From: Escherichia coli
GTDB lineage: Bacteria > Pseudomonadota > Gammaproteobacteria > Enterobacterales > Enterobacteriaceae
NCBI RefSeq assembly: GCF_001677475.2
Contig: NZ_CP015229.1
Strand: one strand, 5' to 3'
Length of the DNA stretch: 64,000 nucleotides
The position numbers were made by a program, and so were the translations under genes. Numbering within the stretch: the stretch's first letter is position 1; the number at the start of each line of letters is the position of its first letter. This document shows positions 38,516 through 53,309 of this stretch, piece by piece. Under the pieces are notes generated by a model, which did not search any database, was not told the DNA's origin, and was given only the letters and a program-made list of their open reading frames with translations.

Positions 38516-38884
38516 ATGAGAATAGGGACAGATATTGTTGAAATTGCCAGAATAACCAAAGCCATTATTAATGGAGAGATGGCTTTTTATGAGCGTGTTT
38601 ATACTGCTCATGAGCGCTTACTCATTAACCCTGCAGAACCTGATTATGAACGGGCCTCTGGATTCTGGGCGGCGAAAGAAGCGTTAGTTAAAGCGATTGG
38701 TTGTGGTTTTCGTGATGGCGTACGTTTCCAGGATATTGAAATAAAGCATGATGCGGCCAAAGCACCTTATTTCGTTATTTCCGGAAGACTACAAGAAATT
38801 TTTATCGGGCAGGGGTTGCAAAATAACTCCCTGAGTATTTCGCATTGCCGTACCCACGCCATTGCGACTGTCATCGTTTATTAA
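38516..38884 (+). CDS. Holo-ACP synthase (AcpS-family 4'-phosphopantetheinyl transferase)
   Basis: 122-aa ORF beginning [13 protein letters not shown] with the GxD and WAAKEA motifs of AcpS. Confidence 0.8.
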
Positions 38885-38897
38885 CTCAACATATGTG

Positions 38898-39659
38898 ATG
38901 AATATGTACAAATATAATGATTTAAATGAAAAAACCGTACTGGTGACAGGAGCCAGTGGTGATATTGGACTGGGTATTTGCGAGAAATATCTGGAGCAGA
39001 ACTGCGATGTTTATGCGCTCTATAAATCCAACGACGTGCAATTAACGGCGCTGAAAGCAAGCCATCCTGCAGGCGATAAACTGCATATTGTCCAGTGCGA
39101 TCTCGCCTGCCCACAGAGCGTGAGCGCATTGTGCGAACAGATAGAGCGCGAAGCTGGCAAGATTGATGTGCTGGTGAATAACGCGGGCATCGTTAAAGAT
39201 AGCCTGTTTGCCTCGATGAGCTATGAGGATTTCACCCAGGTTATCGAAACCAACATGTTCAGCATTTTCCGTCTGACGAAAGACGCGCTGATGCTGCTTC
39301 GTGCGGCAGAAAATCCCGCCATTATTAACGTTGCCTCTATTGCAGCGCTTATCCCCAGCGTCGGTCAGGCGAATTACAGTGCGTCAAAAGGGGCGATCCT
39401 CGGCTTCACCCGCACGCTGGCAGCAGAAATGGCACCCTGGGGCGTGCGCGTCAACGCGGTCGCACCAGGAATGATTGAATCGAAAATGGTGAAAAAAGTA
39501 TCCCGCGCAGTGGTCCGTGCGGTAACCAGTACCATCCCGTTACGCCGTCTGGGTAAATGTGAAGAAGTGGCGAACACCATCGTCTTCTTAAGTTCCTCTG
39601 CCTCCAGCTACATTGTCGGCCAGACCATCGTTATCGATGGCGGCCTGGTCATGCGGTGA
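38898..39659 (+). CDS. 3-oxoacyl-ACP reductase (FabG-like SDR)
   Basis: Motifs VTGASGDIG, NNAG, and YSASK catalytic pattern; start at ATG 38898 chosen over overlapping ATG 38862. Confidence 0.85.
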   Translation: MNMYKYNDLNEKTVLVTGASGDIGLGICEKYLEQNCDVYALYKSNDVQLTALKASHPAGDKLHIVQCDLACPQSVSALCEQIEREAGKIDVLVNNAGIVKDSLFASMSYEDFTQVIETNMFSIFRLTKDALMLLRAAENPAIINVASIAALIPSVGQANYSASKGAILGFTRTLAAEMAPWGVRVNAVAPGMIESKMVKKVSRAVVRAVTSTIPLRRLGKCEEVANTIVFLSSSASSYIVGQTIVIDGGLVMR

Positions 39660-39662
39660 TTT

Positions 39663-49986: not shown

Positions 49987-51371
49987 AACGTGCGCTGAAG
50001 ATCTCTTCGTTGCTGTGTGTTGTGCTGCCGTTGACGGTACAGGCGGATTGCCTGTCAGGTGACGAGGTGGCACAAAACAGCGATGTGACGCTTTACGAGC
50101 AGGTGTCTTATGTCAATAAACAGGCTTCGGCCTGGCAGATTGCAGGCAAAAATCCCTACACACGTCACAACGGTTATCAGGAGGCGGGGATTGGCATCAA
50201 TAGTGGTTGTTCAATAATCGACAATACGCTGGACCTTAAGCTCAATCTGTATGGAATAAACGAATATGCGCTTAAACCCGCAGGGAAATTCGAAACGGAT
50301 GATAGCCGCACGCGTGCGTTAATTAACCGCCTCAGTCTGGTCTATAGCGCCTCGGACAGCGTTCAATTTGAAGCAGGCAAATTTGCCGCGCCGTCAGGAA
50401 TGTTCTTTTTGCGTTCGCCTTCTGATTTGCAAACGCATTATTACACCGGATTCCAGTCGACGCGTTTGCACGATCCCAAAATGACATCGGCGTATCAGGC
50501 GTCATCGTGGGGAGCAAAAATGAGCGTGGATACACGCGATTATGCGTTTTCAGCGAGCGTCATACCGAAGTTAGCCACCATCGACAAACGCTATGTGACG
50601 TCTGGCAACTGGTCTGCTAATCAGCAGGGAAACAGCGACGAAGCCTATCTGCTGAGCTACAGCGATCATCGCTTTGGTGAGCACACGCCGACAGTCAATG
50701 TGCGGCTCGGACCCTCGCCGTCACTCGCGCTGTCTGACAGTTATCACTACACCCCGCAGCTTACGCTGAATGTCGACGCAGCCTACCACCGCTCCCAGCA
50801 ATGGCGGCATCTTTCCCACCGTGAGACGGCGCAGGTCGAGGAATATCAGTTTCCGGATTCGCTCTATGAAACGAAAGACGAAAGCGGCGTGGAGCTGGCG
50901 CTGGGTGGGCAGTACACCAGCGATAATTTCAGCGTGTTTGGCGTTGAGTATTACTTTCAGAGTGAGGGTTATTCGCGCGCTGAACAGCGTCAGCAGCGCG
51001 AGTTAATTGACTTCCTCAATACCACAACCGGCTATGCGCCACTGGATCAGGCATTTGATTCTTACAAATACCTGATGGCTTCAGAAATCAGCAATACCGC
51101 CAATCAGGGGATGCTGCAGGGTAAGCACTATCTGAACGCCTGGGCCAGTCTGCCGCTGGCGGGAGAGTCGACGCTGCAGCCTTCGCTGGTGGTCAATCTC
51201 ATTGATGGCAGCACGTTGCTGGGCCTGCATTATTCCACGCCGCTCAGCGCTATCAGTAACCAGCTTGAAGCCTATGCCGGTGGCTATAGCGCGCTGGGAA
51301 GTCGGTATTCTGAATTTGCGCTTTTTGGCGACACGTTAGGCCTTTATTTGGGCTTTAAATACTATCTATAA
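49983..51371 (+). CDS. Putative outer-membrane protein
   Basis: 462-aa ORF with signal peptide and alternating-pattern beta-strand-like sequence; overlaps the upstream stop by 4 bp. Confidence 0.5.
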   Translation: MKRALKISSLLCVVLPLTVQADCLSGDEVAQNSDVTLYEQVSYVNKQASAWQIAGKNPYTRHNGYQEAGIGINSGCSIIDNTLDLKLNLYGINEYALKPAGKFETDDSRTRALINRLSLVYSASDSVQFEAGKFAAPSGMFFLRSPSDLQTHYYTGFQSTRLHDPKMTSAYQASSWGAKMSVDTRDYAFSASVIPKLATIDKRYVTSGNWSANQQGNSDEAYLLSYSDHRFGEHTPTVNVRLGPSPSLALSDSYHYTPQLTLNVDAAYHRSQQWRHLSHRETAQVEEYQFPDSLYETKDESGVELALGGQYTSDNFSVFGVEYYFQSEGYSRAEQRQQRELIDFLNTTTGYAPLDQAFDSYKYLMASEISNTANQGMLQGKHYLNAWASLPLAGESTLQPSLVVNLIDGSTLLGLHYSTPLSAISNQLEAYAGGYSALGSRYSEFALFGDTLGLYLGFKYYL

Positions 51372-51381
51372 GGATAAAGAG

Positions 51382-52326
51382 ATGATGAATAATGCTTCAC
51401 AACCGACAGTACTGCTTTTTGCCGGTCAGGGTAATCCGGTTATTGGTATGGGCAGCGATCTTTGGGATCTCAACGCCAGTACAAAACATATCTGGGATTG
51501 TGCCAGCGATATTTCCGGGCTGAACCTGCGTCGCCTGTGTCAGAAAGGGCCGATGAATCGCCTTATTCAAACGACGGTACAACAACTGGCGGTGACCGCA
51601 ATTAATGTAACGCTCTATACCCTGTGCCGCGAGCGTCTTGAGAATTTAACGGTTGTGGGCTCCTGCGGACACAGCGTTGGTGAATACAGTGCGCTCTACG
51701 CCGCTGGAGCTCTTTCTCTTGAGACGCTATTTGGCATGATTCACTTCAGAGCCAGCCTGATGCATGACGAAAGCCAGAGAAATAAAGGCGCAATGCTGGC
51801 GGTTAAAGGCATCAACCGCGAACAACTGCAGACGATGATTACGGAATCAGGCATTGCGCTGGATATTAGCTGTGATAACACGCCGCGCCAGCAGGTTATT
51901 GGGGGAACGCAGGCTGCGTTGAATGAATTTGCCACGCTGCTGATGTCCGCTGGATACGAACCGGTTAAACTCGGTGTGAGCGGTGCCTGGCACACGCGTT
52001 TGATGGAAGACGGCGTTCAGGCAATGCGCGATTATCTTGCCGGACTGGATATCGCTTCGCCAGAGCATCAGGTTCTGATGAACGTAACAGCAAAAAGCGA
52101 GGTCGCTCCGTCAATTATCAAAGAAAATCTCTCATTACACTTAACTCATACGGTGAAATGGACTGAATCTCTCGATACATTTCTGAATATGCCAACCCCG
52201 GTAGCTTTCCTTGAAATAAGTAATAAGCCCTATTTGGGGAATATGTTAAATGATTTTGCTGGCGTGGATCAGCAACGAGTTATGCATTGTCGTAAAGCAT
52301 TTAGTGATGCAAAGGTATTCAAATGA
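51382..52326 (+). CDS. Malonyl-CoA:ACP transacylase-like acyltransferase (FabD family)
   Basis: 314-aa ORF with the FabD active-site motif [14 protein letters not shown]. Confidence 0.75.
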
Positions 52327-53309
52327 TTCCTGATTATTTAACTTTTATTCGCTTTCAGGATAAACGAAATCTGATATACATTTATGCTATTGGACTTATT
52401 CTGATAGGCTTTTATTGGAAAAATGCAGGGTTTACTTTTCCATCAGAGGATATTGGTGTCGTTAGTGGGATTCTGGCCCTGGTGCTGTATAATTTTATTT
52501 TTGATCTCAAGGCGTACTGGGCTTATAAATGCGTCACGAAGAATATCGATTTTTCGTGGTTTAAGAAAAAGCAGAACCACAAAATAGAATTATTTCTTAC
52601 ACAACCTCTGGTGGCAGGATTTCTGTCGTTAATCATGTTGAGTGCAATGAGTTGGGGGCTATACCAGCTTCTACCCTCGTTATATGCGCTGTTCCTGATT
52701 TCGTTACTTGGGCTGTTGGTCATCTTTCTGCTGTTTCGGATGATCCGCACCAGTTATGTCAAGCAGGTCGCTATTTCAGTAGCGAAAAAAGTAAAATATA
52801 AAAGTCTGACTCGCTATGTGCTGCTTTCGGTGTGCATCTCAACGGTTGTTAACCTGCTTACTATCAGCCCGTTGCGTAACAGTGATTCTTTTGTGACAGA
52901 GGGGCAGTGGTTAACGTTTAAATCGATAATTGCATTGCTCATTCTTTGTGGCGTAGTGTTGGCGATTAATCTGTTTTTTCTGCGCTTCTCCAAGCGGTAC
53001 GCTTTTCTGGGTAGGCTTTTTTTGCAGGAAATCGATCTGTTTTTCTCCAGTGAAAATGCGTTGTCGACCTTTTTTGCCAAGCCGCTTTGGCTTCGGTTAT
53101 TCATATTGCTGGTTATTGAAGTGATGTGGATTACGCTGGTGTCGGTATTGGCAACGCTTGTGGAATGGCGGATTTGGTTTGAAGCCTATTTTTTACTCTG
53201 CTATGTACCATGCTTAATTTACTATTTTTTCCATTGTCGATGCCTCTGGCATAACGATTTTATGATGGCATGTGACATGTATTTCCGTTGGGGGCATTTT
53301 AATAAGTGA
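52323..53309 (+). CDS. Hypothetical integral membrane protein
   Basis: 328-aa ORF with multiple hydrophobic helices; last gene of the operon, overlapping the upstream stop. Confidence 0.55.

Follow-up and report, generated by a model that had tools for sequence, protein, structure and literature searches.

Aryl-polyene (APE) clusters, which lack an enoyl reductase, combine a ketosynthase (KS), a chain-length factor (CLF), a ketoreductase (KR), a dehydratase (DH) and an acyl carrier protein (ACP) with a LolA-fold protein and an exporter. Together these proteins presumably bring a polyene lipid to the outer membrane. For the export of lipids derived from polyketide synthase (PKS) or fatty-acid synthase (FAS) enzymes by a MacB-type pump, a precedent is provided by DevBCA-HgdD, the system of heterocyst glycolipids. 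In two-partner secretion (TPS) operons of the hmw1ABC type, tpsA and tpsB are followed by accessory genes on the same strand, and HMW1C glycosylates its TpsA. Here we describe a locus that brings together traits of all these systems. It lies in a stretch of 64,000 nucleotides from Escherichia coli (contig NZ_CP015229.1, assembly GCF_001677475.2), hereafter called the window, and consists of 17 co-directional genes, tpsA to ycdU (32980-53309), with spacings of -17 to +88 nt. Among known systems, those nearest to it in logic are the APE clusters and lipid exporters of MacB type, for instance DevBCA. We regard it as moderately probable that this mobile operon builds a specialised acyl or polyene lipid, which is carried to the outer membrane and acts there with the TpsA fibre.

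An earlier, sequence-only reading of the window had delimited a 15-gene operon at 38516-53309. The listing of open reading frames (ORFs) confirms these 15 same-strand genes and their short gaps or overlaps (spacings -17 to +73 nt), and all of them are real, but the conserved unit is larger. It begins about 5.5 kb further upstream, at 32980, with tpsA and tpsB, which gives 17 genes. The same reading had proposed a comparison with O-island 47 (OI-47) of E. coli O157:H7; the locus is the right-hand half of OI-47 itself, i.e. its TPS and FAS/PKS part, and not something to be compared with it. Positions 32980-53309 match O157:H7 strains, including strain F8798, with 97.9% nucleotide identity and 100% coverage, all 17 coding sequences are annotated there as intact, and the chromosomal place is the same, the dgcT...serX locus adjoining the tRNA-Ser gene serX. 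The OI-47 genes z1542 to z1556 together with ymdE/ycdU have reportedly been annotated since 2001 as an adhesin plus a polyketide/fatty-acid biosynthesis system. The locus itself has therefore been known since the O157 genome; what is added here is how far the unit extends, which subunits it contains, how it divides into three layers and in which genera it occurs. The published work on OI-47 that we found deals with grvA and vmpA only, with nothing on the product or function of the biosynthetic genes, and a 2007 thesis on Z1542 is cited in PMC11125564. In agreement with the sequence-only reading, which knew of no characterised product of the operon, our full-text search gave no paper naming one, most subscription journals being outside its coverage, so that a report may be missed.

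The extent of the unit is best seen in its conservation. A scan for the KS-KS didomain protein of the operon (referred to as KS-CLF below), with one genome taken per species, yielded 23 loci in other genera: Kosakonia, Enterobacter, Izhakiella, Silvania, Buttiauxella, Mixta, Serratia, Klebsiella, Rahnella, Leclercia and Acinetobacter. Searches with the window proteins (tblastn) recovered the identical gene set, in identical order, in all of these loci with enough sequence. The same 17 genes in the same order, with tpsA-tpsB at the head, are also present in Neisseria sp., Utexia and Aeromonas. Because this order is kept both in the 23 loci and in the latter three taxa, the gene arrangement is far beyond chance. 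In all 26 close relatives examined, drawn from at least five orders, the tpsA-tpsB pair is located directly upstream of acpS. The gap between the tpsB stop codon and the acpS start is 15 nt in the window and approximately 6-25 nt in the other loci with readable ORF ends. Sequences beyond tpsA...ycdU differ from species to species. As the flanks vary while tpsA...ycdU is kept, tpsA and ycdU mark the two ends of a mobile unit. Close orthologues are found in the Klebsiella oxytoca/aerogenes/michiganensis group, the Enterobacter cloacae complex, Serratia, Kosakonia, Mixta and some Acinetobacter.

The operon is also under purifying selection. A comparison of the window with O157:H7 gives an overall ratio of nonsynonymous to synonymous changes (pN/pS) of 0.086, and no gene reaches 0.3, the ACP being identical and its ratio undefined. 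Distance matrices of TpsA and TpsB correlate with that of KS-CLF (Spearman 0.37, Mantel p 0.003, and Spearman 0.59, Mantel p 0.0005, respectively), a correlation that sits within the range of the other operon proteins and could also be yielded by block inheritance alone.

The biosynthetic enzymes were assigned with curated NCBIfam models and with precomputed Pfam matches on identical proteins in public assemblies, and both sources agree with all enzyme types named by the sequence-only reading: a phosphopantetheinyl transferase (PPTase), an ACP, a FabG-like KR, a FabZ-like DH, a KS-KS didomain, a second KS-like protein, a FabD-like protein and a GcvT-like protein. All genes of the unit lie on the plus strand. 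The first gene after tpsB codes for an AcpS-type PPTase of 122 aa (38516-38884; TIGR00516, 79.6 bits against a cutoff of 59.8; PF01648). It is followed by the FabG-like KR, a short-chain dehydrogenase/reductase (SDR) of 253 aa (38898-39659; NF009466, 227.5 bits against a cutoff of 222), which scores 239 bits with TIGR01830, under the cutoff of that model, and is 33% identical to FabG2 of the APE cluster of strain CFT073. The dehydratase (39663-40211, 182 aa) has a FabZ/FabA fold with an insertion of about 45 aa, a PF07977 match and a weak ApeI-like match; FabZ models cover its residues 17-80 only, and the HFPxxPxxPG motif and the Glu are conserved. The dedicated ACP (40233-40514, 93 aa) is a PP-binding domain protein whose DSV-motif Ser is invariant in 22 orthologues. 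A FabD-like malonyl-CoA:ACP transacylase of 313 aa (PF00698; TIGR00128, 178.5 bits against a cutoff of 261) is encoded near the end of the unit (51385-52326). No enoyl reductase domain is present in the unit or in the five variants examined; housekeeping FabI could act in trans.

Between the ACP and KS-CLF genes stands a gene for a GcvT-like protein of the folate-binding family (40550-41710, 386 aa), which carries PF01571 (GCV_T) and PF08669 (GCV_T_C). It falls under the equivalog cutoffs (NF001567, 136.7 bits against 300; TIGR00528, 101.4 against 235.85) and is not the housekeeping T protein of glycine cleavage. The T protein of T. maritima matches it with 89 bits; the GE and RLE motifs align and are conserved, and the first Asp of the T-protein DD pair aligns to Gly. 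In all six variants that have the gene, the next gene downstream codes for a KS-CLF protein, and in five of them the GcvT-like gene also directly follows that of the ACP. Such a constant pairing of GcvT-like and KS-CLF genes across distant bacteria points to a biosynthetic step not yet understood.

The KS-CLF protein itself (41784-44342, 852 aa) is composed of two ketoacyl-synt/Ketoacyl-synt_C pairs. Its N-terminal half (KS1) is FabF-like, with 250-265 bits to solved FabF structures, and its Cys-His-His triad is invariant in all 30 aligned sequences. In the C-terminal half, the position of Cys is taken by Glu in the window and varies among relatives (E/Q/A/Y/V/F), and both His residues are gone. 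Since the triad is invariant in the first half and lost in the second, the didomain is an active KS fused to an inactive CLF. The Glu at the nucleophile position of the CLF was considered as a catalytic feature and rejected on account of its variability. Among solved structures, chain B of PDB 9S5H is the best match to the active half (265 bits). The entries 9S5H and 9S5I, a structure that is very recent or not yet published, hold two different KS-like chains, B and C, and the CLF half matches chain C with 65 bits (rank 21) and chain B with 72 bits. These entries may represent the nearest characterised relative; the system behind them was not found in our literature search.

Two further thiolase-fold proteins follow. 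The second KS-like protein, KS2 (44347-45570, 407 aa), was aligned to a KS of 6-deoxyerythronolide B synthase (DEBS), which reads D-T-A-C-S-S-S-L around the nucleophile where KS2 reads N-C-T-S-N-S-S-L. KS2 thus has Ser for Cys; the first His is kept and the second is replaced by Tyr, all three residues being invariant in 22 orthologues. Its top NCBIfam match, to cispentacin AmcF, has 63 bits and lies far below cutoff. The next gene encodes a 317-aa protein (45567-46520) with no sequence match in Pfam, NCBIfam or PDB. Its AlphaFold2 (AF2) model (pLDDT 82.8) is matched by Foldseek to OleA, FabH and chain B of the ishigamide KS/CLF (E about 1e-9, TMq up to 0.60), which makes it a fourth thiolase-fold subunit. 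It has no Cys nucleophile: Glu150 is invariant at the nucleophile elbow and Cys is absent there. The gene follows that of KS2 in every variant with KS2, i.e. in the metagenomic locus L037, Proteus and Bermanella. The 317-aa protein is a probable CLF-like partner of KS2, and we infer that the two form a non-condensing heterodimer for priming or off-loading of the chain.

The five genes between the 317-aa protein and FabD code for envelope proteins. The ABC ATPase (46531-47238, 235 aa) is of LolD/MacB/DevA type; it matches the LolD model TIGR02211 with 228 bits against a cutoff of 308, as well as the YbbA, DarD, MacB and DevA models. The MacB-type permease (47879-49189, 436 aa) contains PF12704 (MacB_PCD) and PF02687 (FtsX) with four to five hydrophobic segments, and scores 90 bits against the LolC/E model, the cutoff of which is 362. 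Between these two genes, in the window as well as in L034, L037 and Proteus, stands a gene for a 218-aa protein (47222-47878) with an N-terminal hydrophobic segment or signal peptide. No significant Pfam or PDB match was found for it, profile searches included, with faint tetratricopeptide-repeat (TPR) matches in some members only; it is probably helical or TPR-like and periplasmic. The fourth protein is a soluble periplasmic carrier of the LolA superfamily (49198-49986, 262 aa; PF17131), matching PDB 3BUU ('LolA superfamily protein NE2245') at E 2.6e-34. Its orthologues have leaders of signal-peptidase-I type, and the Cys of the E. coli leader is not conserved, for which reason a LolB-like lipoprotein was rejected. 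The last of the five (49983-51371, 462 aa) has no family match in NCBIfam or Pfam. It is modelled by AF2 (pLDDT 78.3) as an outer-membrane beta-barrel of about 18 strands, and Foldseek relates it to OccD2, OccK7, OprD and AlgE with E between 5e-13 and 1e-11.

The unit is closed by ycdU (52323-53309), coding for a polytopic inner-membrane protein of 328 aa with approximately seven to eight transmembrane segments. No Pfam or PDB match was obtained for YcdU, even as a profile. It is present in all close relatives; in Proteus the profile finds a homologue (E 1e-17, with strong compositional bias), and in Bermanella a membrane protein takes the same position after FabD. The carrier, ATPase and permease had been recognised in the sequence-only reading, and these assignments held, as did that of a putative outer-membrane protein, which gained a fold of the OprD/Occ and AlgE kind. 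Of the membrane proteins listed there, YcdU is indeed polytopic, but the 218-aa protein carries a signal peptide and is probably periplasmic, hence not an integral membrane protein.

The export genes resemble the Lol and MacB systems in their LolD/MacB/DevA-type ATPase, MacB_PCD + FtsX permease and LolA-superfamily carrier. They differ from Lol in scores far under the LolD (228/308) and LolC/E (90/362) cutoffs and in a carrier that belongs to PF17131 and not to the LolA family. Neither LolB nor a membrane-fusion protein is present in the unit, which has the 18-strand barrel and the 218-aa protein instead. By these tests the unit is not a member of the Lol lipoprotein-release pathway, and the likeness is one of mechanism only.

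At the head of the unit, tpsA (32980-36792) codes for a TPS exoprotein of 1270 aa, Z1542 of O157, with a signal peptide, a TPS domain (PF05860; TIGR01901, 77 bits against a cutoff of 29.1) and beta-helical repeats. It matches Fha30 (1RWR) with 127 bits and HpmA with 119 bits. The protein has zero Cys residues, no VENN motif and no C-terminal toxin domain; the chain stops right after the beta-helical repeats, with a conserved terminus, ...G.IVG[LMK]. TpsA is 1270-1290 aa long in E. coli, Enterobacter and Aeromonas and about 840-910 aa in other genera, and the extra ~400 aa of the former are due to an internal tandem duplication of ~300-400 aa (residues ~590-860 and ~960-1230). Its Omp85-type transporter TpsB (36881-38500, 539 aa) is encoded 88 nt downstream and contains POTRA_2 (PF08479), POTRA_3 (PF17287) and ShlB (PF03865). 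The two proteins have the features of a genuine type Vb (two-partner) secretion pair. A CdiBAI system of contact-dependent inhibition (CDI) was considered and rejected, as no VENN motif or toxin is present and the order is tpsA-tpsB and then acpS, not cdiB first. In Enterobacter mori (L007 5073-6353), the TpsB ORF has only 426 aa and spans 77% of the query, a sign of a possible frameshift or truncation in that one genome. The arrangement resembles hmw1ABC-type operons in having tpsA, tpsB and then accessory genes on one strand; unlike there, the accessory genes are a complete lipid-synthesis and export set and not a glycosyltransferase. The resemblance is a lead only, and the window TpsA is not known to be modified.

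Not all relatives keep the whole unit. An exhaustive search of 1.84 billion representatives with the KS-KS didomain gave only four near clusters, with 56, 44, 38 and 35% identity, and beyond them many fusions of ~820 aa at ~30-35%. A second search found KS-CLF-like fusions in Proteus, Providencia, Thorsellia, Serratia, Erwinia, Bermanella, Arenicella, Desulfatitalea, Pirellulaceae and others. In the metagenomic locus L037 (56% identity of KS-CLF), the biosynthesis and export genes are all present and TPS genes are absent. Proteus mirabilis (L041 4098-19464; 56%) keeps tpsA, the biosynthetic genes, the ABC and FtsX genes and a YcdU homologue, and lacks tpsB, the LolA-like gene and the barrel. 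Its tpsA is still directly upstream of acpS, despite the 56% identity of KS-CLF. Identity to the window falls to 27-28% in its ABC and FtsX genes, against 52-58% for KR, DH, ACP and KS-CLF. This reduced form could be a result of decay or a re-purposed pathway. The metagenomic locus L034 (38%) contains genes for the GcvT-like protein, KS-CLF, the ABC ATPase, a homologue of the 218-aa protein, FtsX, KR, DH and the LolA-like protein. Bermanella (47%) encodes FabD, the membrane protein, PPTase, KR, DH, ACP, the GcvT-like protein, KS-CLF, KS2, a 316-aa protein and a second KS-CLF, and has neither export nor TPS genes. Finally, loci L035 and L038 (33-35%) combine KS-CLF with the GcvT-like protein and/or FabD and with two amine-oxidase/phytoene-desaturase-like genes.

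As the variants differ in which genes they keep, the unit can be divided into three layers. The core layer comprises PPTase, KR, DH, ACP, the GcvT-like protein and KS-CLF, usually with KS2 and its partner and with FabD and the membrane protein. To the export layer belong the ATPase and FtsX permease of the ABC transporter, the 218-aa protein, the LolA-like carrier and the barrel, and to the TPS layer tpsA and tpsB. Coupling of synthesis to export is clade-specific and not obligatory, because Bermanella has the biosynthetic core without the export module.

A gene mix similar to that of L035 and L038 (KS-CLF, FabD, GcvT-like, amine-oxidase-like) is described for the divergent type II FAS clusters of Kuenenia stuttgartiensis and Desulfotalea psychrophila, which were proposed to make polyunsaturated/ladderane lipids and contain FabF paralogues with altered active sites together with desaturase-like enzymes; a GcvT-like gene is not mentioned there (Rattray et al. 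2009, PMC2649909). The two sets are likened by description only, and the operon of the window, unlike the Kuenenia and Desulfotalea clusters, is without desaturase-like or radical-SAM genes.

Gene content, folds, states of the active sites, synteny and purifying selection are directly shown by these data. Beyond them, we propose the following course of events for the nature of the product, the direction of transport, the link between TpsA and lipid, and the roles of the GcvT-like protein, KS2 with its partner, YcdU and the 218-aa protein. The AcpS-type PPTase would activate the dedicated ACP, the FabD-like transacylase would put malonate on it, and the active KS of the fusion would elongate the chain, with the FabG-like KR and FabZ-like DH acting in each round. 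As no enoyl reductase occurs in any variant, the chain would be polyene or otherwise unsaturated, or saturated with help of housekeeping FabI. KS2, with its Ser nucleophile, and the 317-aa protein probably prime or off-load the chain rather than condense, and the GcvT-like protein may act on the carrier-bound chain, possibly by one-carbon chemistry. YcdU, whose gene is always paired with that of FabD, may take the chain into a membrane lipid. The MacB-type ABC transporter, with the 218-aa protein as its probably periplasmic partner, would pull this lipid from the membrane and hand it to the soluble LolA-like carrier, from which it would pass to the 18-strand barrel of the outer membrane. Finally, TpsA, made from the same transcript and exported as a fibre by TpsB, would work with the lipid at the cell surface. 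The sequence-only reading had already suggested acyl or polyene synthesis with delivery to the outer membrane; the private FAS/PKS set, transporter, carrier and barrel encoded in one operon favour it, the delivery itself being a matter of conjecture. A more far-reaching version, in which TpsA is covalently lipidated by, loaded with or anchored via the lipid of the operon and a folate-dependent GcvT-like step takes place on the carrier-bound intermediate, we hold to be unlikely. We know of no described precedent for lipid-coupled two-partner secretion.

Several points weigh against our proposal. KS1 matches the ishigamide KS with 200 bits and shares 31-33% identity with the APE KS, being closer to FabF (250-265 bits) than to polyene KSs, which weakens the polyene interpretation in particular. 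YcdU and the 218-aa protein match no known family, so that their roles are guesses. No thioesterase or recognisable acyltransferase for chain release is encoded in the unit. MacB-type transporters also serve as plain efflux pumps, and our literature search found no product, phenotype or expression data for the biosynthetic genes. Export genes are absent in Bermanella and degenerate or lost in Proteus, and TPS genes are absent in L037 and Bermanella, so neither coupling seems obligatory. It is the last point that invites a different view of tpsA-tpsB, in which the pair is a passenger, an autonomous adhesin module on the island functionally unlinked to the lipid, while the lipid and export part of our proposal stays unchanged. 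TPS systems are established to work alone elsewhere, L037 is the nearest TPS-less relative, and the co-divergence of TpsA and TpsB with KS-CLF would be expected from block inheritance as well. Against this, all 26 close relatives, which span at least five orders, have tpsA-tpsB at the very start of the operon, with only ~6-25 nt to acpS where readable while everything outside the unit differs, and Proteus still has tpsA directly before acpS, although it lacks tpsB and its KS-CLF is only 56% identical. We therefore judge the passenger to be somewhat unlikely.

The remaining explanations concern the product. It could be a small molecule that leaves the cell (a polyene, surfactant or toxin, for example), for which the ABC transporter, LolA-like protein and barrel serve as a route of efflux or self-protection. 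Matches of the ATPase to models of the DarD (darobactin export), MacB and DevA exporters and the resemblance of the barrel to the solute-passing channels AlgE and OprD speak for such a role; yet the missing thioesterase leaves release unexplained, a LolA-fold carrier implies hydrophobic cargo shielded in the periplasm, the membrane protein YcdU is tied to the biosynthetic core, and this core exists in Bermanella without any exporter. Taken together, we find a released product quite improbable. That the genes are redundant or decaying paralogues of housekeeping FAS with no distinct product might be argued from the similarity of KS1, KR and FabD to FabF, FabG and FabD, from the reduction of the region to a stump in most E. 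coli and from the partial decay of the export genes in Proteus. Such paralogues would hardly be expected to show a pN/pS of 0.086 with 17 of 17 genes intact in both the window and O157:H7, altered active sites (the Ser-KS and the inactive CLF) kept in all orthologues, an ACP and PPTase of their own, and a gene order conserved across classes, and this explanation is very improbable. Least credible of all is a divergent APE pigment cluster. The KS/CLF, KR, DH, ACP and LolA-like logic is shared, and the DH has its weak ApeI-like Pfam match. However, when all 17 proteins of the unit were compared by tblastn (E <= 1e-3) with the DNA of the CFT073 APE cluster (C_RS05565-C_RS05645), only KR, KS and ACP gave matches, with generic similarity of 31-33%, and the APE-specific genes had no counterpart: no match was found to the MMPL, LolA-family, DUF3261, CLF or lysophospholipid acyltransferase genes, nor to those of glycosyltransferase family 2 (GT2), thioesterase, acyl-CoA synthetase or methyltransferase. 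Domains for aryl starter supply (ammonia lyase or chorismate-derived acid plus adenylating enzyme) are likewise absent from all 17 products. The sequence-only reading was thus correct in excluding a canonical APE locus and in noting the lack of an ammonia lyase, an adenylating enzyme and an MMPL exporter. The operon further differs from APE clusters in the fusion of KS and CLF, in its MacB-type ABC exporter with a barrel, and in the presence of the GcvT-like protein and the TPS pair. An anti-phage defence function was also considered and rejected, as PADLOC models gave no match for seven proteins.

Under the lipid and fibre proposal, a folate-dependent step on a carrier-bound intermediate, if true, would be new chemistry for type II FAS/PKS. 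If a special lipid does reach the surface together with the secreted fibre, several major pathogens would be concerned, in their adhesion and biofilm formation as well as in the barrier function of their envelope and their recognition by the host; in enterohaemorrhagic E. coli O157:H7 the operon is intact and purifying selection acts on it, and Proteus mirabilis has the reduced form.

Within E. coli, the full region is present in 379 of 5426 complete genomes (megablast). Approximately 2290 other genomes, K-12 included, carry only its last 1.3-1.5 kb, a residual stump formed by a 3' piece of the FabD-like gene (the pseudogene ymdE, cut by IS3 in K-12) and ycdU. The orphan K-12 genes ymdE and ycdU are thereby accounted for as a stump of the 17-gene operon; both are said to have been flagged as enriched in E. 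coli from bovine mastitis. Core genes of the window (efe, pga) are only ~98% identical to the best of the 5426 complete genomes, and for this reason the window looks to come from a divergent Escherichia lineage that is absent from complete genomes. Proteins identical to those of the window exist in draft NCBI assemblies.

Upstream of tpsA lies an AT-rich, non-coding leader of ~1.4 kb (31590-32979, GC about 0.40) without any ORF of at least 150 aa, which is presumed to be the regulatory region of the operon. A leader so long and AT-rich suggests that expression of the operon may be silenced. Promoter-like sites in 31500-41800 are no more frequent than in shuffled sequence, and the same holds for terminator-like sites between tpsA and the start of KS-CLF in this interval. 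An Rfam scan of 30000-55000 returned the tRNA-Ser only, with no Rfam family in the leader. The left part of the window (8000-32900) contains efeUOB, phoH, pgaDCBA, dgcT, pdeT (vmpA), a YqeJ-family gene, a regulator, an SDR gene and a fimbrial operon. The regulator is a ToxR-like winged-helix (wHTH) protein standing at the position of grvA, and the fimbrial operon is of chaperone-usher type on the minus strand. The published layout of OI-47, z1528-z1556, fits this part of the window (PMC8565820). None of its genes travels with the 17-gene unit in other genera, and OI-47 is thus composite.

On the other side, the tRNA-Ser gene serX (53506-53590, minus strand) is located ~200 nt past ycdU. An integrase gene follows ycdU in O157:H7, and an integrase with a large island follows dgcT in CFT073; the site is an insertion hot spot. 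The island of CFT073 in this chromosomal neighbourhood, after dgcT, holds its APE cluster (L040 28728-43295), behind which lie a decayed gene of the ShlB family and a hemagglutinin-repeat gene with a frameshift (L043 765-6305). The latter two were considered as relatives of TpsA and TpsB and rejected, since they gave no tblastn match; they have the look of remains of a CDI system. One way for the unit to spread may be on large plasmids. A 322-kb plasmid of Enterobacter bugandensis (NZ_CP110986.1) and a 549-kb replicon of Rahnella sikkimica (NZ_CP019063.1) carry copies of the KS-CLF gene, and several other 'plasmid' matches of this gene turned out to be mislabelled chromosomes.

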